A stretch of 64,000 nt of DNA from Ruminococcus bicirculans (ex Wegman et al. 2014) (GCA_963642145.1 CAVIFU010000003.1:6433-70432), one strand, 5' to 3'; positions 3,709 through 35,456 are shown, numbered from the stretch's first letter. The notes: generated from the sequence alone by a model not told the origin. Program-made: numbers and translations.

Positions 3709-3709
3709 T

Positions 3710-4549
3710 ATGGAATACAGGTTAGACACATGTTTTCTCGGCAAAATGCTTGTGCTGAGCGACGGCAAAATCGAAGTCGGCGTTACTTTGGACGTCGGTC
3801 CGAGAATTATCAAACTCAACAAAATAGGCTCGGAATCCGTCATGTATGAAGATGTCTGCGAGTCCGTTACGCGCGACGTTTCCGCGGAGTATGGCGATGG
3901 CAAAAAGTGGCGTATTTTCGGCGGACATCGCGTCTGGCTGTCTCCGGAAGACAACACAACCTACTACCCGGACTGCACTCCCGTCGATTACGAAATAACC
4001 GAGGACGGCGCGATATTTACTCCCAAGCCTTGGACGGAAGTCGGCGTGGCGCCGAGTTTGAAGATAGTTATGCTCGGCGACGGCAGACTCGACGTGGTGA
4101 TGAACGTCAAAAACATAAGCGGAATTACGCGTAACCTATGCGTGTGGGCGTTGACCGTGCTCAAAGTGGGCAGCGTCGTCACCGTGCCGCTTTCGACGGA
4201 GGACACGGGCTTCCTTGCCAACAGAAATATAGTTTTTTGGCATTACAACGACCTTGCGGACAAGAGATTTACCCTCGAAAACGACAAGTTTATCCTCCGC
4301 GGAGAGGCAAGTGCCGAAGGTCCGTTCAAAGTGGGAACTTGGCTCAAACACGTCAAAGCCGAATACAAATATAAAGATACCGTGTTCGTCAAAGAGACCG
4401 AGGGCATAAACTATAACGAGCCCGACTTCTGTTGCAATATGGAAACGTATACCAATCGTTACATCCACGAGGTTGAAACGCTTTCGCCCATATGCACGGT
4501 GGCGGACGGCGAAACGCTTACGCACATCGAGAAATGGAGCGTGAGATAG
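3710..4549 (+). CDS. Hypothetical beta-sandwich protein, possibly DUF4380 / aldose-epimerase-like
   Basis: AAGGAG RBS, and the start lies 1 nt after the previous stop. The GGHRVWLSPED motif resembles DUF4380-type proteins. The function call is weak. Confidence 0.55.
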   Translation: MEYRLDTCFLGKMLVLSDGKIEVGVTLDVGPRIIKLNKIGSESVMYEDVCESVTRDVSAEYGDGKKWRIFGGHRVWLSPEDNTTYYPDCTPVDYEITEDGAIFTPKPWTEVGVAPSLKIVMLGDGRLDVVMNVKNISGITRNLCVWALTVLKVGSVVTVPLSTEDTGFLANRNIVFWHYNDLADKRFTLENDKFILRGEASAEGPFKVGTWLKHVKAEYKYKDTVFVKETEGINYNEPDFCCNMETYTNRYIHEVETLSPICTVADGETLTHIEKWSVR

Positions 4550-4559
4550 CGGAGGAAAT

Positions 4560-5885
4560 ATGTTAGATAGCGGATATTTACCGATGTATCTGTATCAAAA
4601 ACGTTTTTTGGAAGGTTTATCGCGTGAAGCGCGTAAACCTTTTGTTTTGTCGCTCGAACGTGGCGAAGGCGAAAGCGAATGCTATTCGACGTATCTGTAT
4701 GAGAACGGGCACGATGCGGAAAACCTCGAATATGCCGCCAAAATCGTCAAGACGATGCTCTGGGCATACGGCGGTTACAAGTTCCGCATGTACGGCGGAG
4801 AGAGCGTTATAGAAGGGCTCGGAAAGATATATTCCGAGGACGGCGCGCGCGCGTTCGATTATCTATTTATGCGCGACGTGTACCTGAGACCCTTGGAATT
4901 CGAGTGCTCCGAATCCCCGGTGCCGCCTACCGAATGCAAGGCAAAGCCCGTAAAAAACAACGCTTGCGGATATCGCATAGGGTTTGACGCGGGCGGCTCG
5001 GACAGAAAAGTCACCGCGTGTATAAACGGCAGTCCGGTATACGAAAATGAGACTATATGGTATCCCAAACTCAATGATAATCCCGAGTATCACGAAGCAG
5101 GCATAAAAGACAGCATCGACAAAGCCCTCCGAGCTTTGGACGGCAGAGTGGACGCGATAGGCGTGTCTACCGCAGGGATTGTTGTGGACGGCGAAGTCAG
5201 GGTGGCGTCGCTGTTTCGCATGGTTCCCAAGGAGCTGTTCGCAACGCGCATAAGACCGATATACCTTAATCTCGGCAAGGAATACTCTTGCCCGGTGGCG
5301 GTAGCCAACGACGGCGACGTGACGGCGCTTGCCGGGGCATATTCGCGCGGACGCGGTAACCTTTTGGGTATGGCAATGGGCACAAGTCTTGCCGGGGGAT
5401 ACGTAGACGGCGATATGCGCATCCGCGGTTGTCTGAACGAGCTTGCCTTTGTGCCGGTAGACGCCAACCCGAACGCCGCCGAGGACGAGTGGAGCGGAGA
5501 TAGGGGCGTTGGCGTGATGTATCATTCCCAAGACGGCGTTATCAAGCTTGCGGAAGAGGCGAATATAGATATGGGAGCTGCGAATTCTCCCGCCGAAAAG
5601 CTGAAAATTGTGCAGTCGCTTGCCGAAGAAGGCGACGATCGCGCGATAGCGGTATTCGAGCGCATGGGCGATTACTTCGGATATACCATTCTGTGGTTGA
5701 AGGAATTCTACAAAATCGAGGCGGTCATATTCCTCGGGCGCGTGGCTTCCGGCAAAGGAGGCGATACGCTCATGGCAAGGGCAAAAGAAATACTCAAACA
5801 AGAAGGCGACGACACCGAGATTATCCTTCCCGACGAGATGTCGAGGAGGCTCGGTCAAAGCTATACGGCGTCGAGTCTGAACTAA
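4560..5885 (+). CDS. ROK-family sugar kinase-like protein with an ~140 aa N-terminal extension
   Basis: GGAGG RBS. ASKHA/ROK-like motifs are present: GFDAGGSDRKV, IGVSTAGIVVDG, VANDGDVTALAG, GMAMGTSLAGGYV. Confidence 0.7.
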   Translation: MLDSGYLPMYLYQKRFLEGLSREARKPFVLSLERGEGESECYSTYLYENGHDAENLEYAAKIVKTMLWAYGGYKFRMYGGESVIEGLGKIYSEDGARAFDYLFMRDVYLRPLEFECSESPVPPTECKAKPVKNNACGYRIGFDAGGSDRKVTACINGSPVYENETIWYPKLNDNPEYHEAGIKDSIDKALRALDGRVDAIGVSTAGIVVDGEVRVASLFRMVPKELFATRIRPIYLNLGKEYSCPVAVANDGDVTALAGAYSRGRGNLLGMAMGTSLAGGYVDGDMRIRGCLNELAFVPVDANPNAAEDEWSGDRGVGVMYHSQDGVIKLAEEANIDMGAANSPAEKLKIVQSLAEEGDDRAIAVFERMGDYFGYTILWLKEFYKIEAVIFLGRVASGKGGDTLMARAKEILKQEGDDTEIILPDEMSRRLGQSYTASSLN

Positions 5886-5897
5886 AAGGAGACTAAT

Positions 5898-6704
5898 ATG
5901 AAACTCAACTCAAAAGCGGAAACAGTGCATGGCAAAAAGTCCGTTTACACGGATTTGGTGATATCGGCGCACCAAGACGATATCGAGATTATGTGTCCCC
6001 AAGCGATAATTAAGGGATACCAAAGTAAAGAAAACGGCATGGTTGCCGTAGTTTGTACGGATGGCGCCGGCAGCCCGAGAGCGGGCGAATTTGCCAATAT
6101 GACGGACGAAGAGATGAAGCGCGTTCGCAGAGTAGAGCAGATCCGCGCGGCAGAGGTAGGCGACTATTCCGAGCTCATCATGCTCAACTACACTTCGGCG
6201 GAAATGAAGGATAGGAACAATCCTTCTCCCGTTGAGGACATCAAGGAAATAATACTTAATTACCATCCCGAAACCATGCACATACACAACCTTGCAGACA
6301 AGCATCCGACCCACGTCGGCACGGCGATGGATTGCATCAAAGCGTTGCGCGCGATACCAAAAGAGCTCCGTCCGAAGAAGCTGTACGGATGCGAGGTGTG
6401 GCGCAGTCTGGATTGGTTGGACGACGCCGAGAAGGTAGTGTTTGACCTTACGGGATACGAGAAACTCATGCGCGACGTGCTCGACGTGTACGTCAGCCAA
6501 ATAGCCGGCGGCAAGGCGTATTGCACGGCGTCGATCGGCAGAAGATTTGCAAACGCGACATACTCCGCAAGTCACGGCGTGGACATGTGCGAGCTTGCTT
6601 CCTACGCGATGGATCTCACTCCTCTCATAGAGGACGACGACTTGGATCCGCGCGAATTCATACTCGGCAAAATCAGGAAATTCGAATCGGATTTGCTCAT
6701 ATAA
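5898..6704 (+). CDS. PIG-L / LmbE family N-acetylglucosaminyl deacetylase
   Basis: AGGAG RBS. The motif VISAHQDDIEI (AHxDD, 5967-5981) and downstream His/Asp residues are typical of the PIG-L family. Confidence 0.75.
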   Translation: MKLNSKAETVHGKKSVYTDLVISAHQDDIEIMCPQAIIKGYQSKENGMVAVVCTDGAGSPRAGEFANMTDEEMKRVRRVEQIRAAEVGDYSELIMLNYTSAEMKDRNNPSPVEDIKEIILNYHPETMHIHNLADKHPTHVGTAMDCIKALRAIPKELRPKKLYGCEVWRSLDWLDDAEKVVFDLTGYEKLMRDVLDVYVSQIAGGKAYCTASIGRRFANATYSASHGVDMCELASYAMDLTPLIEDDDLDPREFILGKIRKFESDLLI

Positions 6705-6988: not shown

Positions 6989-7087
6989 AGTTGCGTAAGC
7001 GGACCGTATCGGTCCCGTTTGCGTATATACGCGCGTGACGCGCTTTGCGAAACGCCCGTAACTCCACCACCTCAAGGAGATTTCGCA

Positions 7088-10000
7088 ATGAAAAAGAGTT
7101 TGCTTTACAAGTCGGTGCTGGCACTGCTCATAGTGTCGCTCGCTTTGGTCCTCTTTGCCTGTTCGCCGAGGGAGAACACGTCTACCGATTCCGACGTCAT
7201 CCAAGGCGACAAAACGGACGTTGTTGAAGAAACGCGCCTGACGCAGGAGATTAAGCACCAAGAAGCCGAACAGATGATTAAGGACGGTATCGCCAACAAC
7301 AAGGCATACTATACTTGTTCCGACGATCCCGAGTGGTTCGTCATGGACGTAACGTTCGATTATTCGTTCGAGTACTTCTGGCTCGATTCCGCAGAAAGGG
7401 AGAGTACGAGCACCGCTTGCAAAGCCGTGCTCAAAGCGAACATCAATCTCAAAAACAACCAAAGAAGTCAGCTCTACTTCCAGATACTTAACGCGAACAG
7501 CGTGCCGGTATTTTGCGTTTACTACGCTTCGGGATACACGTATCTGGTGGTCGGTACCGATAAGTACTACATGCCGGAACTCAACTTTACAGAGGTGGGA
7601 AGTTTGGTTTACGGCGCTATCGCGGGTAACGACATAAATGTATTGCAAATCGTCAGCGGCTTTGTAACGGGCAGTTCTACGGGATTGGAATCGTTGCTCG
7701 GACAATATGCGGGCATGTTGTCGCTTGCAAAAAGTCTCGTTTTCAAAAACAAATCTTACGCCACGCAATACAATTACGACGCCGAAAACAAAATTTACAA
7801 AAGTCGTGACGTCGCAAGGGAGATAAAACTCAACGAAACGTTAAGTCTGCTGTGCGGTTCGGGTCTGAATCTCGGATCGTTGAATCTTTCGTTTGCCGGG
7901 ATATGGGACTTGGTCGGCTTGAACTTAGACCCCGTGCTCGGACAATTTTTGGGCTTCACCTTCGAGGGGCTGGGCGCCAAGGATTGGCCGTCGATGAGCG
8001 CGTACCTCACCACGCACACGGAGCTCGAAACATTTACCAAAACAAGCGATACGGGCATGGATTACACCGCGCAGGATTACGTAACCAAGGGTATAAACAT
8101 AACCATAAATACGGCTGCCGACGTAGAAGCCACGCGTGAAAAGTACGCGGGCTACACGCCTGCCGATATGGGCGAATCGGAGAAGGTTGAAGAATACTCC
8201 GTAAGTATAGACCTCTCGCCGATTTTGTTGTATGCGAGCGACAGCCCGATAAGCATTAACTTCGGCGAACTCGGATTAAACGAAACCGGGCGTCAGAATA
8301 CATATTCGCAAGGCAGTATCGGCAATATAGGGCTCGGAGCCACGTTGTTCGTCGAAAACGACGCCGACGGCAAAGTTACCGTAAATTCCGTTTTGGGCAA
8401 GGCGTTAGACGTCAATTTGGGCGCGCTCGGCGATATGGCTATCAATTTCCCTTACGCGGCGCGTTACGAGCTGAGCCTCGACGTCAAAGTCGCGCTCGAC
8501 TTTTTCAGCGCGCAAGCCACTCAGGCGGAAATTACGATCGCCTACAACGATTCTCCGCTGATAAGAGCCTTCCTCGACGGTACGGACTTATATTTGAATT
8601 TTGACGACGTCAAGTCGTTCTCGGGCGCCATAATCCCCAAAGTCAAGCTTTCGGGATTCAGCGTGAACGGATTGCTGTCGGACGTATTGAATAAAATCAA
8701 ACCCTACATAGACCCTAACTACACCAAGGTGAGTTCCGTCCTGAACGCTTCCGGCAGTTCGGGCTCCGCAGAGGAGGAAGGCGGTAGTTCCGTAGACGTA
8801 ATGAGCATACTCAAAGTAGTGCTCAACAACTTGGATCTCCCCGGCAGAGGCGAGTACCGCGTAGACAAATACGGCGATATCGTTCGCGACGCGGACGGCA
8901 ACCCCGTACCCAACGACTGGAACATCGCGCTCGTGCTCGATAGCGAAACGCTCTCGGAGATCGTCGGTATGATTATGCCTCTCAACGGCAATTTCGGCGA
9001 TGACCTCCAAGTCAAATTATCGTTTAACCAATTAGACTTCCTCAATACCATAGCTCTCGACGTAGACGTTACCGATACCGTCAGAATGGGATTGACTTTG
9101 GACACGATATCCTTTATCAAAGAGCACGACTTCGAGAACTACAACCTTGTCGACTCGGAAGAAAAACGCGGTGCGTATACGGATGTATCGGCGTTCCTGA
9201 TCAACTATAACTACAACATGTTCATGTACGGTGAAGTCGATCTCGGTATGCAGGAAACTTCCGACAGAGGCATAGATCTCGGCGGACTCATCGGACAATT
9301 CATAGACGGATTGTTGCTCTCCGTGCACGTGGAGCGCGGTCAAGACATACGCTTTGCGTATAAATTGGAAGCGAACACGAATATTACCGACCTCACCCAG
9401 ACGGAACTTAAACTGACCGTATACAACCCGAATAACGAAACGGTGTACATACGTCTGTTCTATATCGGACGCACGGATACGGTACTTATAGATTTGCAGA
9501 ATTTCTCCGCTTTGGAAGATCAAATCAACGGTTTGAGCTCGATAGGCGAATTGCCGAGGCTTAAATACGAGAACTTGGGGCTCAAAGATACGCTTGCGAG
9601 TATCGATATCGTCGGCGTACTCAGCGGAATACTTACCGGACAAAGCGAGCAAAACGGACCTTACTCCATGACGTTGGATACTTCCGATCCCGACTTCATA
9701 GTCAAGACGCGCGACGCCATAGTAGGACTTTTGAGCGTGTTCGGCGCGATAAATTCCATTGACGGCTCTATCGACAAAGACGGACTGAATAATGTTTTGA
9801 AGGCGCTCTACGGAGCGGAAGACGACGGTGCGGACGGCGAAACCGGATCGGGCATAGATATGATGACGATACTCGGCGCCGCTCTCGACGGAGTGAACGT
9901 CGACGCCATAGCCGGCACCCTTACCGCAAATATAGCCGCCAACGTGTTGAGCGTGCTCATGACGCTGTTGCTTGCGCCGGTAGACGAATTCGGCAATCCC

Positions 10001-13000
10001 AAGACCATCGATATGCCGGAAGTCAACGCTTATCTGCGCGTTCAACTTCTGAATTTTACTTTTGACGGCAAAAACTTACCCGAAGACGGTTACGTCAAGC
10101 TCTATTTAGCCATACGCGACAGCGGTAACAAAGAAATTGACGCCGTTTACTTCGAGGTAGACTTAATCAAAGACGTGGGCGTTCGTACGGGAAGAATCAA
10201 CTTGTACGAAGATATAATCGAAAGCGACTACGAGAGCACGTTCAAGACGATACAAGCCTTCCTTGACGACTTGGTCGTAGGTTTGCGCGTATCGGGCGAA
10301 CTCGATATGTCCGTAGAGAACGAACCCGTTTGGAAGGTGGACGAAAACGGCTCCGTTGTCTTGGACAAGGACGGCAACAAAGTCCCCTCTGTAGACGAAA
10401 GCGGCAATATAATTTACAGCGACAAAAAGATAAAAGAGTATACCAACGCTTACATCAACGGCATTCTCTCCGGGTTGCTTACGGGGCTCGGACTCCGCAT
10501 AGACACCACGGACTTCAATATAGCCGTCGGATTTGAAATCGTAGCCAAAATATCCTTTGCCGGCGCAATCAAGTTGGACGGTTCCGAGGGCGAGGATCTT
10601 ATACCCACGATACTCAAAAAATCCGAAATCAAAGTACGCTTGTTCGACAACCGCTCGTCGGATAAACCCTCCATACTCGGTCTGTACCTGAAGGACGGCA
10701 ACGCGTACCTTGATTTATCCTATTTCGACGTGCCGAGCATAGGCGTAACCGACGTCGATAAGCTCATCTCCGATATAGGCGATTTGACCGGCTCCAACGA
10801 AGCGAACGCCAAGAAGGCGGAAACCGCGCCCGCGAATCTGATGAATCTGAACAGAGTCGCGCAATACGCCGGCGTTGCCAATGCCGAAGCGGTTGCCCTG
10901 CAAGTCATCCTTAATCCCGAGGCTTTGACGGTAACTTTGACCAAAGACGCCATCGCGGGACTTGTCGGATTGTTCCTAAAAGATACCGCGCTTCCCGTTG
11001 CCATACAGGAAACGGAGCTTTCTTTGGGATTCGGCGACAAAGGTTTGACGCTCGATGTTACCACCGGCGTAGACGTATTCGATCTTTCGCTGAGCGTTTC
11101 CAACGTAGGCATAGACGTTGACAAAGAAGCTTTGAGCGGTCTTAACTACGAAGTAGACGTACCTGCCGACGTCGAATTCTATATGACGGAAAACGGCATG
11201 CCCGTAAACGTATACCTCGAACTCGGCGGATACCTCAACATAAATTCCGAGCCCTTGGAAGGTAAGGACGCCAATATCATAGATCTTGCGCCCGCGTTGA
11301 GCGGTCTTCTGAGCGGAGTCGAACTCGGCGCCCTCATAGAATTCCTCGGCATTGTGGACGAATCGTTGTTCTTTGAAGTCAGAGGCAGCGTAAACCTTAA
11401 CGAAATCGTGGATATTGCCAAGAACGGCTTTGATTTTGCCAAGATCAAAGAGTCTGCGCTCTCCGTTACGCTCAAAACTTACGCAAGCAGCGATCCTACC
11501 GACGTGGACGCGGACGGCAACAGAACGCTTAGGAACGTTTTGGAAATATACTACGTGGACGGCGACCTCTACGCGCACATAGACACCGCGATTGTCGAAC
11601 TCCAATACGTATACGTGCCCGACGCGAACGAAGTAATTTCGGAGCTCATAGGACGCTTCAACGGCGGTAACACCGATGAGGAAACGCCTCAGTCTGCCGC
11701 CGACACGGAAGAAGTCACTCAGGATGAGATCATACAATACTACATCGACCTCGTACTCGGAGAATACGGCATTTCCGTAAACATCACCAAGGCGCTTCTG
11801 ACCGGCGTATTCAAGATGCTCGGTTTGGATTTGGACGCATATATTTCGGGGCTCGATCTCGAAGCCGAGGTTGCGTTTAACGCCCATCCGCTCGAAGCGT
11901 ACCTCAACCTCAAAGTGCGCGACGTAGGCGCAGACGGCGTCGACGATCCCGATACGGATAACCCCAACGACGGCAACTTTGTCAGCCTTACCGCTTCCGT
12001 AGACAACCTTAAACTGATGCTCGACAAATCCTTCACCCTTTCGGAGGAAGAGAAATCGCATTACAGCACGATCGAGACTCTCGATACCATAGGCGTTGTC
12101 ATCAGCGGCGCGGCTAAGTTCGAGATCACCGCTACCGGCGATACCACCGATCCCGAAACGGGAGCAAGCGGTAACATTACATCGCTTACGAACATCCTCA
12201 ACGAAATCAAAGCCATCATAGACGCTTCCGCGACCAAGACCAAACTTACTTGGATACGCGACGCTTCCCTCGGCAAATACGATACGGACGACGTAAAGTA
12301 TTCCGATAAATCGGATTCCGAGCTGAGCATCATCTACGATAGAGACATCACCGTCAAAGACTACACCAAGCTTTTGAACTTCGGACTGATCCTTGAAGTT
12401 ATCGGCGACGTGGTGGACGGCAAATCCGCATTCGGCGGAGAAGTATATTATGAATTAGAGGCGATACTGGATATCACGAATATTGCCGACTTGAAGGCTT
12501 CCTTCTTCCTGAGCTCGTCGCAGAAATCCGAAGACAGAGGCAATATCCTTTGGGTAAGCGTCATGGGCGTGGACGACGGCAACGGCAACTACGACATCAA
12601 CGTATTTGCAGACCTAACCAAAGTCCTGAAAGAAGGACTTGTGGTTGAGGACGTCATAAGGGTCAATAACTTCGGCGCCTTCAAGACTTACATGGAGAAA
12701 TTCACCAAGCTTGCTGTGGGTGCCGAGGCGCAATTCGATTCCGCAATGCCGCTCAACTCCTCAAATAACCGCTTGGAGTTGCCGCACAACGCTGCCGGCG
12801 ACGTCGTACCGAGCATTATGACGGGCGCGAGCGTCGTGCTTGCCATCACCTCCAAGGCAGGCGACTACAATATCCCCAACGAGGCTCCCATAGCCTTGAT
12901 AGTACCTTCTGCCGCGGTTTACTCGCTTGCGGATATGTTGCTCTCCGGCGATTCCGCGTTTGAAGTGGAGATAGACGAAAGCAAGATAACCTCTTACGTC

Positions 13001-16000
13001 AACGACGGCGTGTATTCGGAGGACGAATACTACTATGCGTTGCGCGGTTTGACGGAAACGCATGCGGAAGCTCTTGCCGTAGCCCTCGAAAAAGGCGAAC
13101 TCACGAGCCAAAACTACACGATAGCCAACGCATATTGGACGGCTTTCGTAGCAAGTTTGAACGGCGTGCACGAAAGAGATGAAGAGACCATAGCCGAGTA
13201 CAATACGACGGTAGGCACGTTCATATCGACTTACACGGCGATATTCGAGTCCGAACAAAGCATAAATCAAACGTTTACGACGATAGACCAAACTGCAATC
13301 GACGCTCTCAAAACGGCATTCGAGGCATTCAGAACGTTCTATGAAGATACGCTCAAACCCTCTGCCGCAACGGTCAAAGATCCGGAGGAGGCACAAATAG
13401 AAAACCTCCGCAAGGGACTCAGAACAATCAGAATCGAGGAGCTCAAAAAGCAAAAAGAAGAAGGCACCTTGAGCGAGTACAACTTCGACTACCTGTATAA
13501 AGGTATACTTCACACCGTCGAAGGCGAAGCCGTGGATCCTTCATCCTTGGTCAAAATAAACATTGCCGACTTCTTCGGCGTACACGATCCGTCTTTACTG
13601 ATAGAGATCGGCGCGACTTCCGTCCCCGACGCGGAAAGCGGTACAAGAACGGCATTCTTGCTTGTCAACGTCAGCTTGGCAGAGTTGCTTACGTTGCAAC
13701 TCGAAATAGATAAGGTTACCGTATCCATATCCCCGGACGATTCCTACTATGTGGGCAAACCGGACGACAACGGCAACATAATCGGCGGATTGCTTAAACA
13801 AAGCTACCATTGGATAAATCCCGACGAGATGTGGGAGCAACACATAGTAATATCGATTAACGGCGAGCTCGACTTAGACGCGGCAGACACCGACGACGAT
13901 ACCGCTATCGACCTCTCCTCTTTGATTAGTTCCATTCTGTCCACAGCCGACTTCGGCGCGATGATTCGTAACCAAGGGCTCGATCCGACAAAGATAACCT
14001 ATGAGTTATCCGTCAACGCCAACCTGCACGACATCCTCAAAACCGTTGCGACCAAAGACATATACTGGTTGCTCGTAAGGAGCGAAGTACTCCTGCGCAT
14101 AGGCTTCAACGGTACGCGCGAGTATTACGACAAAGAAACCGGAAAATATGTAGAGGACAGGGACTGCACGGAATATATATCCTTATATTACGAAGACGGC
14201 ACCGCTTACATAGACGGCAGCGTCATAGGCGTGCAAAAAGTCAAGGTTGAAACCGCGCTCAAAAACCTCTTCGATTTCATCGGAGCGGGCGACCTAAGCA
14301 AGTACTACGAAATCAGCCGTGACGACGAGAGGAGCGCTTTTGCCGCGGATAACACCGAAACCGAGTCTTACGCGCTCAACGCGCCCGTTACCGCCGAAGA
14401 ATATCTGCCTTACGTGCGCTTGGCATTCGGTAACCAAACCGGCATTGTCATCGAAGTCATGAGCGAAGTTCTCTTCACCGTGCTTTCCGGCTTAGACCTC
14501 GGCGAGAATTTCCCGATTAAAGACCTCGGCAGTGTGGTAAGAGAATCGCTAAACGGCAATCTCGAATTCCAACTCGGCGTCATGACCAAGCTCGGCTTGC
14601 TCGACGAAAAATGGAGTAAGGAAGAAAAAGATTTACTCTCCTTAGCCCTCAAAGCCGGCAACTACACGGTAGGACTTAAACTCAGCGAAATTGCGCTCGA
14701 TCTGCGCGATTCCTCCGAGTCTTCCGTCAGCATCAAGCCCGACGACATCAAAGAACACGAGTATCAGCAGAGCGAGAACTTGGAGAACGTATACGCGGAG
14801 TTTGCAATAGACATCGACTTCGACGGCGTAAACGGCACCAAGTTCAATTTGGACGAGACGGTTGACGGCATTTTGGGACGCTTGGGCATCAATTCCGACG
14901 GCTCGGTAAACAGCACCGTCGAAACGATTAGAGGGCTCGGTTTGGAACCCATAATCCAACTTTTGAGTACCCTAAGCAGTCATTACAGAATAGAACTCAA
15001 AGCTAACATCAACTTTGCCGAGATTATCGACGAAAAGACGTTCTACGACAGCAACTTTGCGCTATACCTCCGCGATAGGGATACCCTCATAGATTACGGC
15101 GACGGTCAGGGCGAAGTTTGCAAAGAAGTATTGTCCGCGCACTATGTCGATCGTTCGTTGTATCTGAACGCCGAGTGCTTCAATATCCAAGCCACGCGCA
15201 TAGACAACTTCTGGGACTTCATCAACGAGATCATCAAAATATACGTACCCGAAAAGGGCGAAACAGACGATACCGAAGCCGAGGATACCGACGCTCAAAC
15301 GGAAGAAATCAAGAACGCAACCGGTTTTGCGGGTTACGAGTCCAAGGACGGATTCGATCCGTTCGGGCTTATCAGACAGGTAACCGACGGCACCGCCAAC
15401 TCCGTGGCTACTTACATTAACATACTTGCTTGCCCCGAGGGCTTGGTACTTAGCATTGGTACCACGGCTTTGTTCGGCGTGCTCCGCGCGTTGGGCGGCG
15501 AGGCGATGGACTTTGAAAGTTACGTACAGCCCATAGGCGAACTCAATATAGAGGCAAGCCTCTTGGGACCCGAAGACATCATCAAATTAGGCGTCAAATT
15601 CGAGGGCTACGAATTCTCCGGCGACGAGAGGATAAACATCGGCACCGACGAAAATCCCGAATACAAAAAGCACGGCGACATAGGATTCAGCTTTGGTATA
15701 GTCAACGACTTCACACTGGCGTTTAACTATCAGTGGTTGGCGAACAAGTACTACACCGACGACACGTACGAAGTTGTCACCATCAACAAATCCATATCCG
15801 CTCCCGACAAGGCGCACGTTGACGACGGCAACGACGGATACGAGGATATAGAGTATACCGCGGTAGACCTCACCGACCCCGTAATAGGGCTGAGCACGGT
15901 GCTTTACATAGATCTTGCCGCAGGCGAGATTACCGGTTCCGGCATCACCGGCACCGTTACGCGCGAGTACGACGAGAACGGCGAACTCAAAGGCGTGCAC

Positions 16001-19000
16001 TTTGACGGCTACGACCTCAACAAAGAGCCGTTGACGTCCTTGCTTGCTGGAGTGATAGACGCTACCCTTGCGATACTCCTCGAAATCAACGGCACCAACA
16101 CGCTGAACATCGAGCTTGAAATCCTCGTCAACTTCCCGCTGCGCAACTACAAGGGCGTTGAGGCTCAGGTAACGTTGCGCGACGTCAACGCAGGCAACAT
16201 TTTGTTCCGCGCCAACCTGCACAATTCCAACCTGTACGTTGACCTTACCTACCTCAACGGACCTAAGTTCACGGTTGAGGACGTTCTGGAAACGTTACTC
16301 GGTGAAAAGGAATTCGAAGACGACCTCTTGGGCGACCTCTTCGGCAACCTGTTTGGCGGAAACAAGAGCTCGTCCGGCGTGCAGAACGCTTCCGGCGCGC
16401 AAAACGCCTCTTCCTCCACAACGACTCCCGTAAACCTCGACCTCGGCGTAGAGAGAATCATCAAAGGCGTCATGACGCACGGCATAGCGTTGTACGTCAC
16501 GGAAACGGCATTGAATTCCGTGCTCGGCACCTTGAAGATGGCAAACATGAAGATATTCAGCGACGTGCTCGTCCAAATCGGGCTTGCCGCCAAGAGCAAC
16601 AGCTTCATATTAGCCGTCGACGTCGAGGCGCAGGCGGAATACACGGATAAATCGCTTAACAGCGTCAAGAGCAAAGTCATAGACTTGGGATTGGGCATAG
16701 ACGGCTTGCGTTTGAACTTCAAGGGCTTCTCCAACGAAGAACTCTTACTGCCGCAAACGGCAAACTACATTAAGGCGCACGAAGTAAACGTTATTACTTT
16801 GGGCACGTCCGTCGAGATAGAACTCGGCATCAACGGCGGCACGATAGGGTTAGAGAATCTGTACAAAGAATTACTGAGCAAAGACGGCGCCGTTGCCGGC
16901 TTGATAGGCGGATCCGATAATCCGTTCTACACCCTCATCGAGCAAAGCGACGTGCTTACCGGCGTACTTCCCAAGATGGTAATGCTCGGCGACGTAGGAG
17001 ACACCCTCGTATTCGATATATCCGCAATGATACCCATCAAGAGCGGGCTCGAAGGGTTGCTGTCCGACATGCAACTCAAACTTGAGATTTACTCCAAGAC
17101 TTGCAGAGAAAAATTCGATATCGTCCTTACCTATTATAAGAATCAGCTTTACGGCGACTTCTCTTCGATAGGGCTCGGCAAAGTATACGTAGAGGACGTA
17201 GACTTCCTCATCAACTGGTTCAAAGACTTATTGGGCGGTAGCGGTGAAGAAACCGAACCCGCGTCGGCTTCGCTCACGAACATGAGTAGTCTGCAAAACG
17301 CATTCTCCGACAAGTATCCGTCCTGGTCATCGGCTTTGGGACTCAACAACGCGGATAGCGGAGACAGCCTCGTAGGCATAGTCAAGATACTCCTTAACCA
17401 AGACGACGGCTTGCTCATAACGGTAACGTTCGAGATGATCAACACGTTACTCAAAATGGTGGGCGTCGATATAGGATTGGAAAAATATTTGGCAGGCGTG
17501 GTCAATCCGAGCGCAACCGTAGGCATAACCACGCGTCCCGCGTATGAAGTCGGCATCCACATCGATACCGCGCAAACGACCACTCCGCAATGGATTTGGG
17601 ACGAAGAAACGAAAACATACACCAAGGGCGAGGACACCGAAGGCAACGACGGCGGTATGGACCTTGCGCTCCGTCTGCTCGGCGATACCGTCAAGATAGG
17701 CGTCGAGAACGAATCCGTCGTATACACTCCTTACGGCTTGCAATCCACCCTTACTCCGCTTATTTCCGAGTCGGAGCGCGCAACTTACAAGATGTTTAAC
17801 GAAGTTGCGTTGAACCTCGGCACCAACCTCTCGCTTCGCTTGGATTTGGACGACGGCTTAGTGCAGATTAACGCCTTGCTCGATACGATTTTGGGCATAA
17901 TCGGCATGAAGATGCCGGAGGACTACGACACCAAACTCGTGTTCGGCGGCGGCAACGAAACGTTGTACTGCGAAATCAACGTGCGCGTGGGCGTAGACCT
18001 TGCCAAACTGTTGTCCGTCAAGACGGAAGACATCACGAAAGCCATTACGCTGGAATTCACGATGCAATATACGATTATCGACAATACCACGAACGAGGTT
18101 TACCTCAACCAGAAGATATTGCAAATCTATATGCTTAACGACGTGATTTACGCCGGCATAGAGCTGTTTGATACCGAGTTGGGCGTCAAAGTAGCCGACC
18201 TCGAACTGAGCGACACCATCCGCGGATTGATGGAGAAGTTGTTTATCGTTGACGACGTAGAGGATGACGTGACCACCGACGGCGACAAGACGGAAGAAAG
18301 CACCGCGCAAAATTCCTCCGCGAATCCGATTTTGGATATGTACGAGGCGACCAAGGACAACGTGGGCAATACGCCGATAGGCAAGCTCATGACGCCTATG
18401 ATTTACCTCAATTCGCAAGGCTTTGCGTTGATGCTTACCAATGAACTCCTCGTAGCCTCCATAGACGCCATACTCAAGATATTCAACGACGGCGCCATAG
18501 GCACGCAAGACGGAGACCCCTTGGTACTCGATAGGGACGATATTACGTTCATAGCCAACGAAATTTTGGATTATGCCACCGTCGGCGTCTACTTTGACCC
18601 CGATAAGGAAGGCAATATGAGCGTCAAGCTCAATATCACCAAGGAAGCCGGGGAAAAGGAAGAAACCGGTGAAGACGCCAAATGGTACGACTCGGTGGGA
18701 TACGGCATAACGCTTTCGCTGTTCCACGACAGTTTGCTTATAGTCAATACCGAGACGTATGAAGCGCGTTTGAATTACCTTGCTAACGACGAAGAGCACG
18801 TGGCATATTACAACAATTGCCTGGATTCTCGTGACGTTACCTGGCGCGTAAACCTCGGACTTGACCTATCCGTAGGCGCGGATATATCCGAATACATACT
18901 TAACTGGAGCTCGCTGTTCGTCAACGAAAAGGACGAGGACGGCAACACTACGGGCGCCGGATTCTACATACAGGCGCTGCAAGATATTGTCGGCGAACTT

Positions 19001-22000
19001 ACGTTGCGTATCAAAGCGGACGTCGTACTTACCGCTCTCGACGAGTGGGCGGTAGACGCCATCATCCAATTGGTAAAACTCAAAGAGGACGGCACGTATG
19101 TCGGCAACGACGACGTCGAAGAAGAAATATTCGCGTTGTACATCGTCGGATCCCTCAACGACGCCGCTACTTACCAAGAGAAAGGCGTGCGCGTTTACAT
19201 GACGCTTGGCGCGATGGATCAATACGGCTTATCGGGTATAACGCTCGACTCCTCCGTATTCGAAGAATTTTTGGATCTCAACGTCAAAGCCTTGTTGGAG
19301 GCTCTCGGCGGTAAGCTTTCCACCGCTGTGGAAGGCTCTCTCGTCAAATCTTTGTCCGACTTGATGGACAAGATGAAAGAGATTCTCAAAGATATCGGCG
19401 GCAGAGCTTCGGATGAAATCGAAGAAACCGTGGAAAGCAATCCGCAAAACGCCGAGGAAGACGTTGATTCTAACGGCACCGAGGATCCGTACGCGGTAGA
19501 AGAAGAGGAAGAAGAAACTCCCGTCGCTTGGTACGCGGGACTGTTCGACAGTATCAGATTTACCAAGGGCGCGATATCGCTCGTAGTAGCCCAAACGGCT
19601 ATACAAACCATATTGAAGCAATTATTCAACTTCCCGTTTGAAGACAAGGTAGGCGAGCTTGCCTTGACTTTGGACAACGCCAACAACTCCCTCAAACTTT
19701 CGTTCGGCACCGATTATCAGGAAGCGGAGAACGTCAGCCAAATCGACATCGACAGGCTCATACCCACCATTGCCGACGACGCCTCGGTATCCACGATAAC
19801 CGCAGAGATAGAAGGACTCGAATACGAAGTTCTGGGCGTAACCGACAAATTGTTCCTAAGCGGACTGCAAGTAGCTTATAACGGAAGAACCGTCATAGCC
19901 GAAGCTTCCTCCGCCTACCTGAGCAATACAAAAGCAACCGAAGTCAAGGGTATTTCCGACGGAGAAGTCAGATACCTCGTCTACGACGTCAACAAGATGT
20001 TTACGGTTGCGTCCGATAAAGCGGAAGACGCCGCGTCAAGCGTTGCGAACGCCATTATTACTCGTCTTGCCGGCACCCCGAGCGCACACGGACGTTATAA
20101 ACAAGACACTACCGAAGACGGCACCACTTACTTGGTTGCAAGAGACGGCGCGCTCAAAGCGAGAGTCGCCGTCAAGAAATGCGGTAGCAAAGTTTTGGTT
20201 GCGTATGCAAAATCGTTCTCCGGCATGGAAATTCCGAGCTTGAATATAAGTAGCGTGACCCCGGACGTCCTCGGAACCAACCTCGTAAGCTTGACGACGG
20301 AAGAAGAAGCCAATGAGGAAATCCGCAGAGAGTATGACGACAAGTTCTTGGAAGGCATTACCGTCAACGGTAAGGCGCTCACTGCCGAAAGCGTCTACGT
20401 ACAGGCGCAAAAACTCTACGGCGGCAAAGCAGATAAGTACGAGGTCGAGAATCCCGGCACGCGCAACGTATTCTACTACGTCTTCGATCCGAGCGACTAT
20501 TATGAGAGCGAAAGCGGATTTACCGCGGAAGAGTTGAAGGCAAACGCCGAAGAACTCAAACAAATCATATCCGATGCGTTCAGAGCCGGCACGTACACGA
20601 GATACATGACGCAAGACCGCGCAATACACAAGCTGTATAGGTACGAAACGCAATTCAACGTATCCGTCAAAGTGGCGGAAGTCACGGACGATAGCGGCAA
20701 TATCGGCTACAAAGTGCTACTCGGCGCGGCTACCGACAGGAGCATGTTCAACGTATACCTCAAGATACACGGACTCGACTTGGGACTTGGCGAAGGCAAT
20801 ATCTTCAAGGAGATGCCTCTCGGCGGCAAAATCAGAGACGGCAAGACCGAATACGAAGTCAACGGCGAAAAGGTTACGTACGACTACAACGACTACTTTG
20901 AAGAGCAATTCAAACCTCTCTCCGACTACAAGTGGGAGTTCGAAGCATATTCCGAGCTTACCATAGACGATACCGTCGGCGGAATATTCGACATGTCCGA
21001 TCTGTTGGGCGTTGTCGGATCGCTGGTAGGCGGAGATATAGGCAACATAGTTTCAGCCATCAACTTTGCGCTGCAACCCATCGACGACGTAGCCATCACG
21101 TTCGGACTTGCGGTACGCGGATACATAGATTTCAGCGACTTTACTCCGATAAGGTTGCAGGTAGAACTTACCAACCAAGGCAAGACGATGCTCCTGCTTA
21201 CCTACGTTGGCGGTTACGATTCGGACGAAAACGGTGATTACGAGAACAGCACCATCTACTTAGACCTTAGCGGACTCGGATTCCCGTCGGTTAAGTTAGA
21301 GGGAATACAGCTTGGCGCCGTCATCAAGAAAGTCGTAGGCAACTTGGGCGGAAACAACGCTTCCGACGAACAACAATCTGCCGATAAGGATACCCAAACC
21401 GAGAGTTCGGATACCGTAAATCCGTCCAACGCCTCGGCTCCCGACAGAGTTTACCTCAAAGACAAAGATATAGACTTCAAGATGCTGTTGCTCACGCTCG
21501 GCGACGAGAACGCAAGCATAGCCATAACCGGCGCGCTACTCTGCTCGCTTATAGCCAACATCGCGGCAAACGACAAGATATCTTCGATTCTCGGCGGACT
21601 GGATATAGAAGTACCGCTATTCCGCAACTTGCAGATCGGATATTCCAAAGAAGACAATCTAGCGGGCGTAATTTTGCGCCTGACGGACGACACGCCTTAC
21701 GAAAAGGCGTTGCGTATCGGATTCAACTTCCGCGGTAAGGACGAAACTCAGGAGGGTTACGGCTCGTACACCAAGTTCCGGACGGGCGACGCGCAATCCA
21801 CCACCATCGCTCCGAGAGAGCACGTAGAGGGCGAAAAAGAAGAAGGCATCGTATACGAAGACATCTCCGTCATAACCAAAGTGGCTTTGGGCGTCGAACT
21901 CGAAACGCGCGTTCGCACCAAGGACACGGAGAAATCTTCACAACTTCAAGCGCTCGAAACGTTATTGCAGACCTTGCTCGCGGGGGCGGGCTTACTCCCC

Positions 22001-25000
22001 GACAGCGACGGCGTCATCAACCTCGACGTACAAAATACGATGCTCGTATTCAACCTCGGATTGAACGTTTACACAGATCTTTCCGATTTGACCGAGACGA
22101 CGATACAACTTTCGCTCAAACTCTCCGGTGAAGATTTGCTCGGAATATACTTCCTCGGCAAGACCAACACGGTATACGTAGACTTAGAAGGTCTCGGATT
22201 CTTCCGCGCGGCAGTCAACGGAGTAGATCTCATAGGAATACTCAATAACTTCGTGGGCGGATTCCTGGGCGACGACGGCTTGGAGATAGGCGAAATGCTT
22301 ACGGGGCTCATCAACGGGCTTACTAACGCTTCGCAACAAGACGCGGCGGCGAGCGCTTCGATAGCGGAAGATACCGACGCTCCGCGCAACGCGGCGATAG
22401 ACCTCGTAACGTCTACCGACAGCCCGTTACTCAAAATCCTCGTTTCCAACGAAGAACTCATCATCAACCCCAACGTTGCCATACTCCAAAAGCTTGTCGG
22501 CGACAGCATGATACTGCCCAAGATAACCGACATTCGTCTTGGCATAAACCTCTACCAAGGCTTGAATAACTTCAACCTCAAAGTCAAACTTGATCAGAAG
22601 GGCAACTATGTAAGTTTGGGCATACCGGAAGGCGGACTCAACGTATTGGTAGGCAAGGATTCCGAGAACCTCAAACTCTACACCATAGGCGACGAGTCCA
22701 CTTACGGCGGCGTCATAGGCATATCGCTCGGCGTGGATTCCGCCGGCTCGATTTCCGCCGGCATAGACGCGTCCAAGCTTGCGCAAGGGCTCCTCGACAC
22801 TATAGAACTCAGCGACTTCACGTTGTACCTCGAGAAGCGCAACGACTACTTCTTCTTCCGCAACTTAGCCTATAAGGTAAGCAGCGGTACCTTCGATTTC
22901 AGCGAGTTCGGCACGAGCTTCTCCACCGGTCCTACCGTGTTCTCCACTTTGGCGGATTCCACGACCTGGTCTAAGTACTCCACAACGACCGACGGCAAAG
23001 AGTTGAATCCTTATGACGTGGCGTTCGTATCCAACGGACAGGCGTTCAGCTTGACGATAGGCAGTTGGGATATCGGGAAATACATCAAGACATACGAACC
23101 CATCTTCTTCGATAACGCGTACAGAAGAGTGGCAATCTACGCCAACAAGAGCGTGCAGAACGTCGTGGAACTCGACATCAGACAGCTCACGCAGGTGGGC
23201 AACGTGGAAACTTACGCCAATTCCGACGATTGGGAGCCGATGGGCTTGACTGCGTTTATCAAGGATAACGTCATCAAACTCTCTCTCGACAACCTGTTGG
23301 TTATCGACTTGACCGGACTTATCAACCAAATTACCGGCTTCCTCCTCAAGAGCATCGTAAGCGCGATTAGCGGCCCTGCAGGCACGGTGGTCAGCGCGCT
23401 TTGGAGCGTCATAGGACCCGCGATTTCCGGCTACATAGCCGACCTTATAGGTAACTTCTCCATCACCATCGGCGGCGTGGAGTACGGCAATTACGGCAAC
23501 CCGCTCAAAGTAGGTAAGCTCGTTACGGATATTCTGTCCAAGGGCGACGTCGGCATAGGCGTGTTCAACATCTACTTGCCGACGCTACTCGGCAATACGG
23601 CAGAGGAGGAGAACAGTTACGGTTCGCTCTTCGGTAACGTCAACGCGCTGGCTAACGCTACCGATAATACCTACGCACCCGTAGAGGGCGCCAAGGTAAC
23701 CCTCCTTACCGGTAACAAAGAAAAGTACGTCACCTACACGGATGAAGACGGCGATTACACGTTCGTCAACATAGCCTCAGGCACGTACAACGTAAAGATT
23801 ACTTGCGACAAGTACAACGATATACCGAGGGTTGGACAATCCAATCCTCAGGTAACGGTATACTCCTACTACGATAAGCCCGCAATGGAAGCCAACTTCA
23901 CCATGACTAAGTATGAGGAAGGCTCGTGGACGAATATAACCATCCACGGCGTGGTGGAAAGAGAAACCGCCGTCAACGTTGTAGAGAAAGTAGAAGGCGC
24001 CGTAGTTTACATCCAAAACGACAACGAGTGGCATGAAGTAGGCAAAACCGACGCAAACGGCGCGTACAGCGGTACGTTAAACTTGACGCTCAAATCTTCC
24101 TACCACAGCATGAAAGTCGAAAATACCCCGGTCGGCACGATATGGTCGTCCGTAACGCTCACGTTCAATAACGAAGGCGGTACGAATACCGATTACACCG
24201 TCAACTTCAAGTATTGGGTCGGACGTGAAGCGGAGAAGGTGCCTACAATCAAGGCAACCATCCTCGTAAGAGACTTCGGAGACAACCTGCTCACGGGTAC
24301 GGCGTCGAGCGTATATGCAAAATACGCGCGCACCGACGAGGGCGAGGGAACGTCGTTTAACGCAAACGCCGTGCACTCGGGCTCCGCGATAAACGGAACG
24401 GTGATAAACGATAACTTCTCGGGCGCAGAGCACGCGGCAAGTTACAGCGAAAACGACGTATTCTACGACGTATACGAGTTTAGCTCGGTCGACGACCTGA
24501 AGACCGGCGTAAAAGCTCTTGCCGACGCTATAAAAGCTCTCGAAAAAGACAACGTCAAAATATACGACGTAACGGAAATCATAAGCGGATTGTACTATCG
24601 CGCGGAAAGCTATTCGGAAGCGAGCGCCATCGAGATTCGCGGATTCGTGGGTCAAAGCTACAAGGGAGAGCTCTCATACCGCGCAATCATAGCGCGCAAA
24701 GCCGCCAAGACCGCGGCGGCGGAAGAATCGGGCTTTGAAATTTGGCTCGAAAAAGACAATAGAACCATCAGGAATTCCGATTCCTTCTCGGGCGCAAGCA
24801 ACAACGTCATAACCGTCACCAAAGAGGACGGCTCGGAAGACTCCGCAAGGACGAATTACGCCCAAAATACCGCAAGGAATTACTTGTCTGTCATCCGTGA
24901 CGGAGAGGACGGCAAAGTATTGAAGCTTTCGGACATCGAGGACGAAGCCACGCGCAACAAGAACGCCGTTTACAACCAAAACAGCGGCGTGGCGACGATT

Positions 25001-28000
25001 AAGTATCTCGGATACTCGACCTACACCGTCAAGGTGCGCTCGACGTTGTACGAGAACGTCACGATAGGCACCGTTACTCTGACGGAGGACAAGTACGACA
25101 TCGACATGGGCGAAATCATCCTTACGCCCAAGACCAAGCCTAGTTGGATAGAGCAAGAGAACGAAGCCGAACGCATGCTCCAAGGCTTGCGCATCCGTCT
25201 CGGCGCGGATACTTTGGACGCTTCTAGCCAAGGCGTAAGCGGACAGGATCCGGAAACCGACGCCGGCTATACCCAAGACGGTATACCGCTGACTAAGTAC
25301 TCTTATCTCCAAAGCCTCGGCGACAAGACCGTCAACGCGCTCATTCACACCGCTACCGGACAGATCAGCAGCGCCATAGGTAACGCCATAGGTAACGCCA
25401 TAGGCGGTACCGGCGGCAGTATCGTCGGTAGCTTGGCAAGCAGAGGCTTGAACGCGTTGTTCGGACAAATCGGCGGCGCGGATACCTCTTCGCAATACTT
25501 AGACGCCGTAGGCAAACCGATATTTGTGCCTTGGACGAACTACGTCAACGGATACGAGCAGGGCGTGAAAGACGCTTCCGACTCCGTAACCTATATAGAA
25601 GCGTGGGTATCGTCAGACCTTATCAACAACATCGTATCCACCGTACACAACCTCTTAATGGCGTATACGGGCTACGGCAGCATATCTAAGGATAGACGCT
25701 TCACTTCCGCCGACCTATGCAAGATACCGGACGGCACGAGTGAGGACGACATCAAGCACCTCAAATTCTCCGGCGAATTCAGCGAGGATTTGGAAGAGAA
25801 ATGGGGCGATTACGCGTTTAGCAGTCAAACCGATTACACCGACATGCTCTACGAAGCAGGCGGTAGATTGGTGGGAAGCTTCGCGGTGTTTGCCGTCAAC
25901 TCCTTGGTAACTCTGGATCCCAAGTGGATGAACCTCATCCAAATGCTTGCGTATTCCATCGACGCCATCAAGGAAATACTCGACCAAGTAACGAGGCTTG
26001 TGTCGCACGCCTTACCGCTCACGAGCGGCTACTCCATGATTATGGAAAAGGATCTCCCGGGCAGCCCGCTCAATCAAACCGAGATCTACTCCACCGTTTG
26101 GGAGTACAATACCGCTTACGGCTATATGGATATAGAGAAGAAGACGGTATTGGGCGGAACAAAGACGCGTGAAATGTATCAGCCGTCATTCTCCACCAAG
26201 GACGTAAACGGCAACAGCCTCACGGTAGAAGAGAAGTCCTCGAGCTCCTATACGTTTGCACAAGGCGCGAACTCCATTAGTAAAGTTACGATATCCGACG
26301 ACAACGCTCTCGGCAAAGTGGTAGGTCAACGCTCTACCAACGTACAAGATCTCGTGGCTAACAGCGGCGTACTGGATAAAGGCGACAACCTCGTAGGCTA
26401 TAACTACAATTCCGGCATCTACGCCAACGACAAGATAAAAACCACCGTTGACGACAATCCCGTATTCGACGATGACGGCGAACTCGTAAGCGGCTATAAG
26501 CGCGAACTCGACTTCATAGACAAGTCCGTTTACGCAAAGGTAGTCCTCAACAAGGCTTCCGGCACGTTGCTTGACAGAATAGTTCTGTTCGTCAACGGCG
26601 CGACATACTCGAATACCGCTTCCGGCATGCTTGTAAATCAAACCGATTATATGCCCAACGCGACCGAACTCCGCGCCGATACAATTTTGTATAACGAGGA
26701 CGGCAGCTACCTCTCGGAGCAATACGAGGCGATGGATAAGATAATCCAAAAATGGATTAGCACCAACACCGTAAACTCCTATGTGGTAATCTCCGACTAC
26801 AAGTATTCCGCGAGTGAAACGGGCGTTATCACCTCCACGCTGATAGGCAAGACCTACGTAAGAGACGTCTACGGACACTTCGACTCGGAAGACTTTGCGT
26901 ACGGCGACATAAGCTGGATGGTATCCGAAAACAATTATGACAAGGACTTCAACGTAGAAAGCGTTTCGTACAGATACGCCAGCCGTTATCCGCTCAACAG
27001 CGACTTCTCGCTCAACTATACGGCGCTTACTTTGAGCGATATGCCTTATGTGCAGGCGCGCTCCATAATGTCGGCAAAAGACGACAGATTCATGGAAATC
27101 GATATCAACAACACAGGATTGCGTTTGCGTTCGGTATCCACGATAGGCAACAACCTGTACAACTCCACGCCCAACGGCACGAGCGGTATGTCGGAGACGG
27201 TAACGCAACCGCCCACGAAGATCGTCTTCCACGATCCGTACAACATCTTGGACTTTACCGCTTACGGCGGAACTTGGACGGAAGCATACGGCGGCGTAAG
27301 ACACAACATCAACAATGACGGTTCTTACTCCGTAAACAACATCAACGACATACTTCCCAACCGCGCTTACGCGACGTTTACGGACGGCACCTCGAACGGC
27401 TCGTCCGGCGTGGAAATGTATTGGGACTTCACAATGCTCAGCATGGTTCCGAGCACGGAAGGCACCACCGGATACATTCGCGGATATGTCGGCGAAGAGA
27501 CTTACAGCAAGAACGCCCAAGGCACGGTAACTTACATCCAAGCCGTGGTAGAGGGCGGATTGCTCATAAACATCGATTCCACCGACAATATCAAGGGACA
27601 ACCCGAGCGCAACAAGCAAGACGCCACGTTGTTCGCAATTGACGAGAACAACAAAGAAAAAGCGCTCACGCTCCCCGAAATCGATCCTTTGAACTTCGAT
27701 AAGGACGAATATTTGGCGTCACTGCCCAAGACCATCGTATACACCGCCAAGATGAGATACGAGAGGGAAGGCAGCTACCAGACGTTCACCGTTTACGGTC
27801 AGGAGACCGACTACATAGTCAAGAGATACGTATTCAACGACGTATCGTGGGATATAGACCTAAGCACCGTGTCCTACTCCGGTGAGCCCGCAACGCTCAA
27901 ATTGACTTACCGCTTTACTCCGAGCAAGGATACCGAGGGCAACACCTTGGGAGAGCCGTCCGAGTCGGTAACAGTCAACGTGCCGGTAAGCGTCAAGAAC

Positions 28001-35425: not shown

Positions 35426-35456
35426 ATAAAGGTACCACGGAGTGGTAAGAGGTTAT

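Follow-up and report, generated by a model that had tools for sequence, protein, structure and literature searches.

What is encoded between positions 7532 and 22450 of a 64,000-nucleotide stretch of DNA from Ruminococcus bicirculans (ex Wegman et al. 2014) (GCA_963642145.1, CAVIFU010000003.1:6433-70432; the whole stretch is called the window here)? An earlier note, made from the sequence alone, had described about 14 strongly diverged modules in this region, delimited by two recurring motifs, A and B, and had been unable to assign them to a known family. According to our analysis the region encodes the stalk that takes up the first two-thirds of a membrane-anchored surface protein of ~9,400 residues, from a gut Clostridia bacterium related to uncultured Christensenellaceae and 'Ca. 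Stercoripulliclostridium'; we consider this architecture together with the stalk function, taken as a whole, to be probable. The periodic array is real and consists of ~14 tandem units, and the repeated module represents an undescribed domain family without recognisable fold relative.

The giant open reading frame (ORF) extends over 7019..35317 on the plus strand and comprises 9,432 codons, which form a single open frame. Residue numbers (aa) are counted on this ORF, in which the region 7532-22450 corresponds to aa 172 to ~5144, the front part of the giant protein. All 14 motif-A coordinates of the earlier note are located in frame 0 of the ORF, and all peptides quoted there are present in the translation. 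The beginning of the protein is marked by the following feature.

7088..7162, plus strand: probable start and lipoprotein-type signal peptide MKKSLLYKSVLALLIVSLALVLFAC, read from the sequence, with the ATG at aa 24 and the lipobox Cys at aa 48

The N-terminus reads MKKSLLYKSVLALLIVSLALVLFAC followed by SPR, and a regular expression for lipoproteins recognises its basic n-region, hydrophobic h-region and lipobox Cys. By the same type of test, 14 of 15 orthologues have a lipobox-type signal, as do 33 of the 39 long family members that start with Met. Position -2 of the lipobox is a non-canonical Phe; relatives show IAAC, LVAC or LIGC. We predict from these signatures that the giant protein is a lipoprotein tethered via Cys48. 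On reading the giant-protein sequence we saw no LPXTG motif, no transmembrane segment at the C-terminus and no signal for type I secretion.

The repeats are recognised by several independent comparisons. In the self-comparison that had been proposed as a check, BLAST with 300-aa windows gave off-diagonal matches with a best E of 6e-8. A hidden Markov model (HMM) of the module, seeded with aa 1354-1640 and iterated against the giant protein, three orthologue fragments and reversed and shuffled controls, converges on 11 copies in the giant protein. These correspond to the A sites at aa 523, 820, 1227, 1514, 2393, 2711, 3069, 3374, 3707, 4743 and 5049, while the reversed and shuffled giant protein yielded nothing better than E 0.07. 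Short HMMs of motif A and motif B were built from the wider family and controlled with five shuffles and the reversed sequence (best E 0.08-0.09). They identify nine A sites at E <= 0.001, including aa 178 and 535, a weak tenth one at aa 2712 (E 0.03), and eight B sites, each located 70-130 aa behind an A site. Finally, orthologue alignments of single segments were compared with the module alignment by profile-profile alignment (hhalign). Here copy 1 was found at 96.7% and the copy at aa 4056 at 77.9% (E 1.8e-5). The alignment of aa 1620-1930, which contains the A site at aa 1857, reached only 4.5%, and the negative controls (the two inserts mentioned below and one C-terminal stretch) exhibited no module similarity.

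Thirteen of the 14 proposed copies are supported in this way, the copy with the A site at aa 1857 being the one that is not. The proposed period of 0.9-1.2 kb is seen in 11 of the 13 intervals, in which neighbouring A sites are 287-407 aa (0.86-1.2 kb) apart. It is not seen in the other two (536 and 687 aa), which are long because they hold inserts at ~aa 1990-2180 and ~4233-4480 that are absent from relatives. Motif B trails motif A by about 65-130 aa, as described before. The units and the region behind them are as follows.

7196..7648, plus strand: unit 1, partial and N-terminal, A at 7532 (A-motif HMM aa 178, E 0.001; 2-module HMM aa 124-261, E 1.8e-8; hhalign 96.7%)
7802..8698, plus strand: unit 2, A at 8585 (module HMM aa 464-604; A-motif HMM aa 535)
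8786..9589, plus strand: unit 3, A at 9476 (module HMM aa 730-828; A-motif HMM E 1.2e-5)
9854..10810, plus strand: unit 4, A at 10697 (module HMM aa 1146-1338; A-motif HMM E 3e-6)
10895..11671, plus strand: unit 5, B at 10895, A at 11558 (module HMM aa 1396-1617; B-motif HMM E 6e-6)
11741..12700, plus strand: unit 6, B at 11741 supported, A at 12587 putative (B-motif HMM E 2.8e-5; hhalign 4.5%; collinear with relatives)
12866..14308, plus strand: unit 7, A at 14195 (module HMM aa 2274-2495)
12986..13558, plus strand: lineage-specific, largely helical insert in unit 7, ~aa 1990-2180 (no module similarity)
14408..15262, plus strand: unit 8, A at 15149 (module HMM aa 2589-2830)
15413..16336, plus strand: unit 9, B at 15413, A at 16223 (module, A-motif and B-motif HMMs; hhalign positive control, 97.4%)
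16472..17251, plus strand: unit 10, A at 17138 (module, A-motif and B-motif HMMs)
17390..18250, plus strand: unit 11, A at 18137 (module HMM aa 3652-3820; B-motif HMM E 0.003)
18398..19297, plus strand: unit 12, diverged, A at 19184 (hhalign 77.9%, E 1.8e-5; B-motif HMM E 0.015)
19559..21358, plus strand: unit 13, A at 21245 (module HMM aa 4635-4867; A-motif HMM E 1e-8)
19715..20458, plus strand: insert in unit 13, ~aa 4233-4480 (collinearity gap versus relatives)
21479..22276, plus strand: unit 14, B at 21479, A at 22163 (A-motif HMM E 7e-17; B-motif HMM E 3e-5)
22418..23600, plus strand: post-array region with a B-like motif at aa 5134 and a weak A-like match at aa 5429 (E 0.11)

The units measure 260-320 aa, apart from the two that the inserts make longer, and unit 14 is the best-conserved one family-wide. 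The two motifs in the post-array region may belong to a degenerate 15th unit.

Outside this genome, a word-indexed protein search revealed three fragments with 44-55% identity, none of which contains a Pfam domain, and a second such search gave one match. A scan of one genome per species identified 15 orthologous loci with 48-63% identity. They originate from gut metagenome-assembled genomes (MAGs) of uncultured Christensenellaceae, Clostridia, Eubacteriales and 'Ca. Stercoripulliclostridium' (Bacillota; Clostridia), with sheep, goat, roe deer and others as hosts. Twelve of the 15 loci have an open frame of > 5,200 codons that reaches the end of the retrieved DNA; the other three loci are shorter. 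In an exhaustive HMMER search with a 23-copy module profile against 1.84 billion representative proteins, 155 representatives were matched at E <= 0.001 and 39 at <= 1e-30. Many of the 155 are 5,000-7,900 aa long and show 12-15 matched stretches, and neighbouring A motifs are spaced family-wide at a median of 333 aa (quartiles 284 and 502). The cluster members that were looked up all come from Logan assemblies, and none carries a name or an accession. Altogether the family is characterised by a unit of 260-330 aa, which motif B opens and motif A closes, in 12-15 tandem copies behind a lipoprotein signal. Some distant members (among P0013, P0015, P0019, P0023 and P0028) contain long inter-module insertions composed of short repeats that follow the pattern 'G(T/D)RY..' or '..YV.(V/I)..(A/G)..Y', which are absent from the giant protein of the window.

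The relatives also bear on the age of the array. Three of them (P0004, P0006 and P0010) are collinear with the giant protein from the signal peptide to the last residue at 20-35% identity, interrupted at ~aa 1987-2180 by the insert of unit 7. Each module position is conserved at ~49% identity among 12 orthologues, whereas paralogous units inside the giant protein share only 10-23%. Whole-length collinearity at such low identity together with the position-wise conservation indicates that the array already existed in a distant ancestor and that the divergence of its units is old. Judged from these sequences, the array is ancient and every position of it is conserved across orthologues. Of the two explanations offered before for the divergence, great age or diversifying selection, the first is borne out by the collinear relatives; ongoing diversifying selection was rejected in view of the conserved module positions and the collinearity of the whole protein.

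The same data decide whether the array could be an artefact, that is a chance recurrence of motifs, a mis-assembly or a pseudogene read as one frame. Such a suspicion is nourished by the lack of any visible nucleotide-level repeat and by the low identity of the copies. It is refuted by the clean reversed and shuffled controls, by the open frame in 12 of the 15 independently assembled loci and by complete relatives of 7,100-7,900 aa, which are collinear with the giant protein to the final residue. We regard its probability as practically nil, in agreement with the earlier note, which had also held that the array is not an assembly artefact.

The module could not be assigned to a described family. 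Neither Pfam nor NCBIfam gave a match over aa 23-5022 of the giant protein, and in this stretch Big_1 to Big_13, Cadherin-like, FIVAR, Rib or similar repeats were missing from the Pfam results. With Pfam at E up to 1, nothing consistent was found on two distant members and 54 family sequences, and a search of the PDB chain sequences with the module profile gave 0 matches at E <= 10. The novelty that had been claimed for the module is upheld by these searches, and the search with a module HMM suggested at that time likewise led to no described family. Full-text literature searches on giant Clostridia proteins revealed no description of the module family. In a survey of giant genes, the Clostridia giants mentioned are of the RCC1, dockerin and propeller type only.

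For the structure of the units, the segment aa 4620-5170, which comprises the C-terminal part of unit 13, the complete unit 14 and the first part of the following unit, was modelled with AlphaFold from an alignment of 54 paralogous and orthologous segments. The mean predicted local distance difference test score (pLDDT) is 68.4, which is of medium confidence, with cores of 80-93; block means are 75-91 for aa 4690-4769 (unit 13) and 72-93 for most of the unit 14 core. The predicted template modelling score (pTM) of 0.48 is, next to confident cores, what is expected of well-folded domains with undefined mutual orientation. A model of aa 1128-1961 from an alignment of only four sequences was unusable (pLDDT 31). 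In the usable model each unit has ~11 strands and three to four helices, with long antiparallel strands interleaved with helices; the long strands lie between B and A, where a beta-strand-like stretch had been proposed. The model shows a strand hairpin and then a helix for motif B, and a short strand, turn, strand and helix for motif A (consensus '..LYxDLsgLG.p.v.v'). The module is accordingly modelled as an alpha+beta domain of ~300 aa which extends from motif B to the next motif A.

These boundaries are also reflected in the sequences between the units. Both A-to-B stretches of the model are disordered (pLDDT < 50). The linkers measure 23-88 aa and have a raised content of Ala, Ser, Asp and Glu; among 12 orthologues they are less identical than the units (35% vs 49%), contain more gaps (7.5% vs 2.8%) and are richer in insertions. 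Direct-coupling analysis was performed on 216 segments spanning A(i-1) to A(i), corresponding to ~195 effective sequences; at this depth the analysis is noisy, and block-level statistics only were used. Coupling of the B strands to the A region downstream of them reaches a top-10 z of 3.67, compared to 3.32 for the 95th percentile of random blocks; no coupling was detected to the upstream A across the linker (2.61). This covariation support for the unit boundary is suggestive only. Taken together, linker disorder, covariation of B with the downstream A and the low conservation and frequent indels of the linkers lead to a unit from B to the next A and to a linker from A to B, as the earlier note had assumed when it let motif A close one unit and motif B open the next.

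Comparison of the model (aa 4620-5170) with PDB and BFVD by Foldseek, a further check that had been called for, turned up no match at E <= 0.001. The best PDB match is TbpB with E 0.036 and a template modelling (TM) score of 0.08. LolA, LmcA and MHC-like platforms are among the sub-threshold matches, which all have E >= 0.036 and TM <= 0.13 (query-normalised). None of the TamB, VPS13, ATG2, Lpt and TULIP chains was significant.

Two shapes had been considered for the array, beads on a string and a repeating-beta-groove rod. The first one is favoured by the disordered, less conserved and indel-rich A-to-B stretches. In the second one, the array would be a rod of the AsmA/TamB/VPS13 kind, a continuous amphipathic sheet with a hydrophobic channel which moves lipids across the envelope. 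The giant size and the N-terminal membrane anchor would fit such a rod, as would the beta-rich repeats, whose strands are amphipathic, with disordered loops from one repeat to the next, and some Christensenellaceae stain Gram-negative. However, Pfam profiles of AsmA, AsmA_2, TamB (DUF490), YhdP and Chorein_N were not found in the giant protein (E <= 0.1) or in 54 members (E <= 1), and Foldseek gave no PDB chain at E <= 0.001. The units are ~300 aa long with several helices instead of five strands plus a loop, and, judged indirectly from model, covariation and Foldseek, no continuous taco-shaped sheet of 5-strand-plus-loop units appears to be formed. Covariation and conservation point to closed units and unconstrained linkers, and the relatives are found in MAGs of Bacillota/Clostridia, hosts which presumably lack an outer membrane. 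Proteins of the repeating-beta-groove group bridge two membranes, in a diderm host or at an organelle contact. Membership in this group was rejected for the missing profile and fold matches, the helical units and the disordered junctions; a rod of this kind is highly improbable here.

Behind the array the protein continues with a long part in which the module HMM found no copy.

23630..35317, plus strand: C-terminal 3,900 aa, apparently beta-rich and without modules (Pfam, module HMM, collinearity)
~aa 5548-5601, plus strand: CarboxypepD_reg-like domain (Pfam)
~aa 8141-8178, plus strand: Big_4 domain (Pfam)

These two single domains are the only matches in the C-terminal 3,900 aa, and the C-terminal half had 0 matches among PDB sequences. 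Up to its final residue the part aligns collinearly with P0004, P0006 and P0010. Between the array and the distal domains two hydrophobic stretches rich in Gly, Ala, Ser and Ile are observed, SIVSAISGPAGTVVSALWSVIGPAISGYIADLIG (~23336-23520, aa ~5440-5500), which is also present in P0004, and SSAIGNAIGNAIGGTGGSIVGSLA (~25330-25470, aa ~6105-6150). They could be hinges, membrane-interacting or self-associating segments. The motif 'YYVxY..(s)..df..y...l...g' recurs, both in the insert of unit 13 and at several places of the C-terminal half (aa ~4316-4350, 4483-4522, 5815-5850, 7083-7107, 7335-7357 and 8089-8115; window ~19964-31365) and may represent a small inserted alpha/beta domain. In the self-BLAST, 7067-7120 matches 5800-5850 (E 5e-4) and 6980-7106 matches 7241-7365 (E 0.002).

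Upstream of the giant gene lies a conserved group of genes, and a further gene of interest is located downstream.

751..6704, plus strand: conserved upstream block of four genes (Pfam, locus comparison)
42501..43976, in the window: GH20 gene

The block encodes a lipoprotein of 985 aa that combines Big_2 with a transglutaminase-like core, a DUF4380-like protein of 279 aa, a member of the ROK family and a deacetylase of the PIG-L family. Besides the window, the block is noted for the loci L001-L012, L015, L016, L018 and L019. Of the 15 orthologous loci, 10 have the complete set ahead of the giant gene and two others have three of the four genes there; L001 and the distant P0006 locus likewise contain the whole block. 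In front of the very distant P0013 lie a gene of the DUF4380-like kind (35% identity), PIG-L and a GH20 hexosaminidase. Proteins of the block are 55-89% identical across loci, which is above the values of the giant protein. The conserved link to the GlcNAc-related genes for PIG-L deacetylase, ROK and GH20 is a weak hint at an amino-sugar glycan as target.

Two more large ORFs are present in the window, and the module HMM found no copy in its other large ORFs. Directly downstream, 35442-41786 on the plus strand encodes 2,114 aa with an N-terminal hydrophobic segment, an HExxH motif (HETAHVLGAPDLYHY), RCC1 repeats, Big_2 and Big_3, and a dockerin/EF-hand-like region at the C-terminus. The product looks like a second large surface protein and is possibly a metalloprotease. 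The ORF at 53167-62283 (plus strand, 3,038 aa) also starts with an N-terminal hydrophobic segment and has neither a Pfam match nor a module copy; its product is probably a third large surface-located protein in the same 64 kb. Between 8000 and 34000 a strong positive AT skew (0.10-0.22) is seen on the coding strand of the giant gene, and many long ORFs are found on the opposite strand, with up to 562 aa (28832-30520). The latter are most likely compositional by-products and not genes.

What is the giant protein for? The reading which we consider probable, with the function deduced from the architecture, is a long lipid-anchored stalk of tandem domains which displays the distal 3,900-aa part. 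With Cys48 lipidated, the protein would be held on the outside of the cytoplasmic membrane. Its tandem domains, each folded independently, would then form a long flexible stalk through and past the cell wall, and the stalk would display the beta-sandwich-rich C-terminal 3,900 aa for binding to a substrate, a host surface or other cells. The strong divergence of neighbouring units would meet a need of tandem-domain proteins, which is to avoid misfolding between domains and loss by recombination.

Several observations weigh against this reading. The unit at aa 1575-1894 has no verifiable A motif, the covariation is based on only ~195 effective sequences, and the neighbourhood is not kept in all branches, the P0033 locus being without the genes of the upstream block. 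Moreover, the weak Foldseek matches include lipid and ligand binders built from a sheet plus helices (LolA, MHC-like, LmcA), which leaves room for a binding role of the module. The modules themselves might bind or carry a ligand such as a glycan, a lipid or another hydrophobic molecule, and the array would be a multivalent capture device instead of a passive stalk. This is conceivable, though rather unlikely in our view. The ~49% identity of module positions among orthologues is beyond the need of a pure spacer, the model has sheets with packed helices and its weak Foldseek matches are to binders of this build, and the link to amino-sugar metabolism genes is conserved. On the other hand, all these Foldseek matches are non-significant, the comparisons with Pfam, NCBIfam and PDB sequences revealed no motif for catalysis or binding, and most of the conserved residues belong to the hydrophobic core or to turns (LYxDL, GLG). 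A very unlikely extension is that the module is a new fold for hydrophobic or glycan ligands and that the 14-unit chain spans the envelope as a relay or conduit, in a Firmicute lineage whose envelope is unusual; if true, this would be an independently arisen functional analogue of the bridge-like lipid-transfer proteins.

Irrespective of the ligand question, the module family accounts for the greater part of some of the largest proteins known from gut Clostridia. Its array is a clean natural example of repeats whose positions have long been kept while neighbouring copies have diverged to the detection limit. As a lipid-anchored stalk, the protein would be a membrane-tethered fibre, which may reach hundreds of nanometres, and thereby a concrete object for research on the ways in which Christensenellales-like gut bacteria, which are poorly cultured, make contact with their environment. 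Testable leads are offered by its conserved association with a transglutaminase-like lipoprotein and with genes of amino-sugar metabolism.

Among known systems, the predicted order of secondary structure suggests for the module a likeness to LolA/LolB-like half barrels, MHC-like platforms and TULIP domains, in which helices cover one face of an antiparallel sheet; the LolA, LmcA and MHC-like matches in Foldseek are all far below significance. Repeating-beta-groove proteins (AsmA, TamB and YhdP; VPS13 and ATG2) are also giant and share an N-terminal anchor, periodic amphipathic beta units and disordered loops between the units. In contrast to them, the giant protein has no profile or significant fold match, its units are twice as long and contain helices, and the evidence favours closed domains on flexible linkers. 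The closest design is that of the adhesins of the Ebh (Staphylococcus aureus), SiiE, LapA and BapA type, which are likewise secreted, cell-anchored proteins of several thousand residues. In these adhesins a tandem-domain array serves as stalk for a distinct distal binding region, and the same design is proposed for the giant protein. Its repeat differs, being an undescribed ~300-aa alpha+beta domain and not an Ig-like, FIVAR/GA, cadherin-like or other Pfam repeat. Neighbouring copies are only 10-23% identical, whereas many adhesins have near-identical repeats. The predicted anchor is an N-terminal lipobox, in place of an LPXTG motif, a C-terminal transmembrane segment or a type I secretion signal. 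A giant tandem-domain surface protein is a known kind of system, which is represented here with a stalk domain that is new and with a predicted lipid anchor at the N-terminus.

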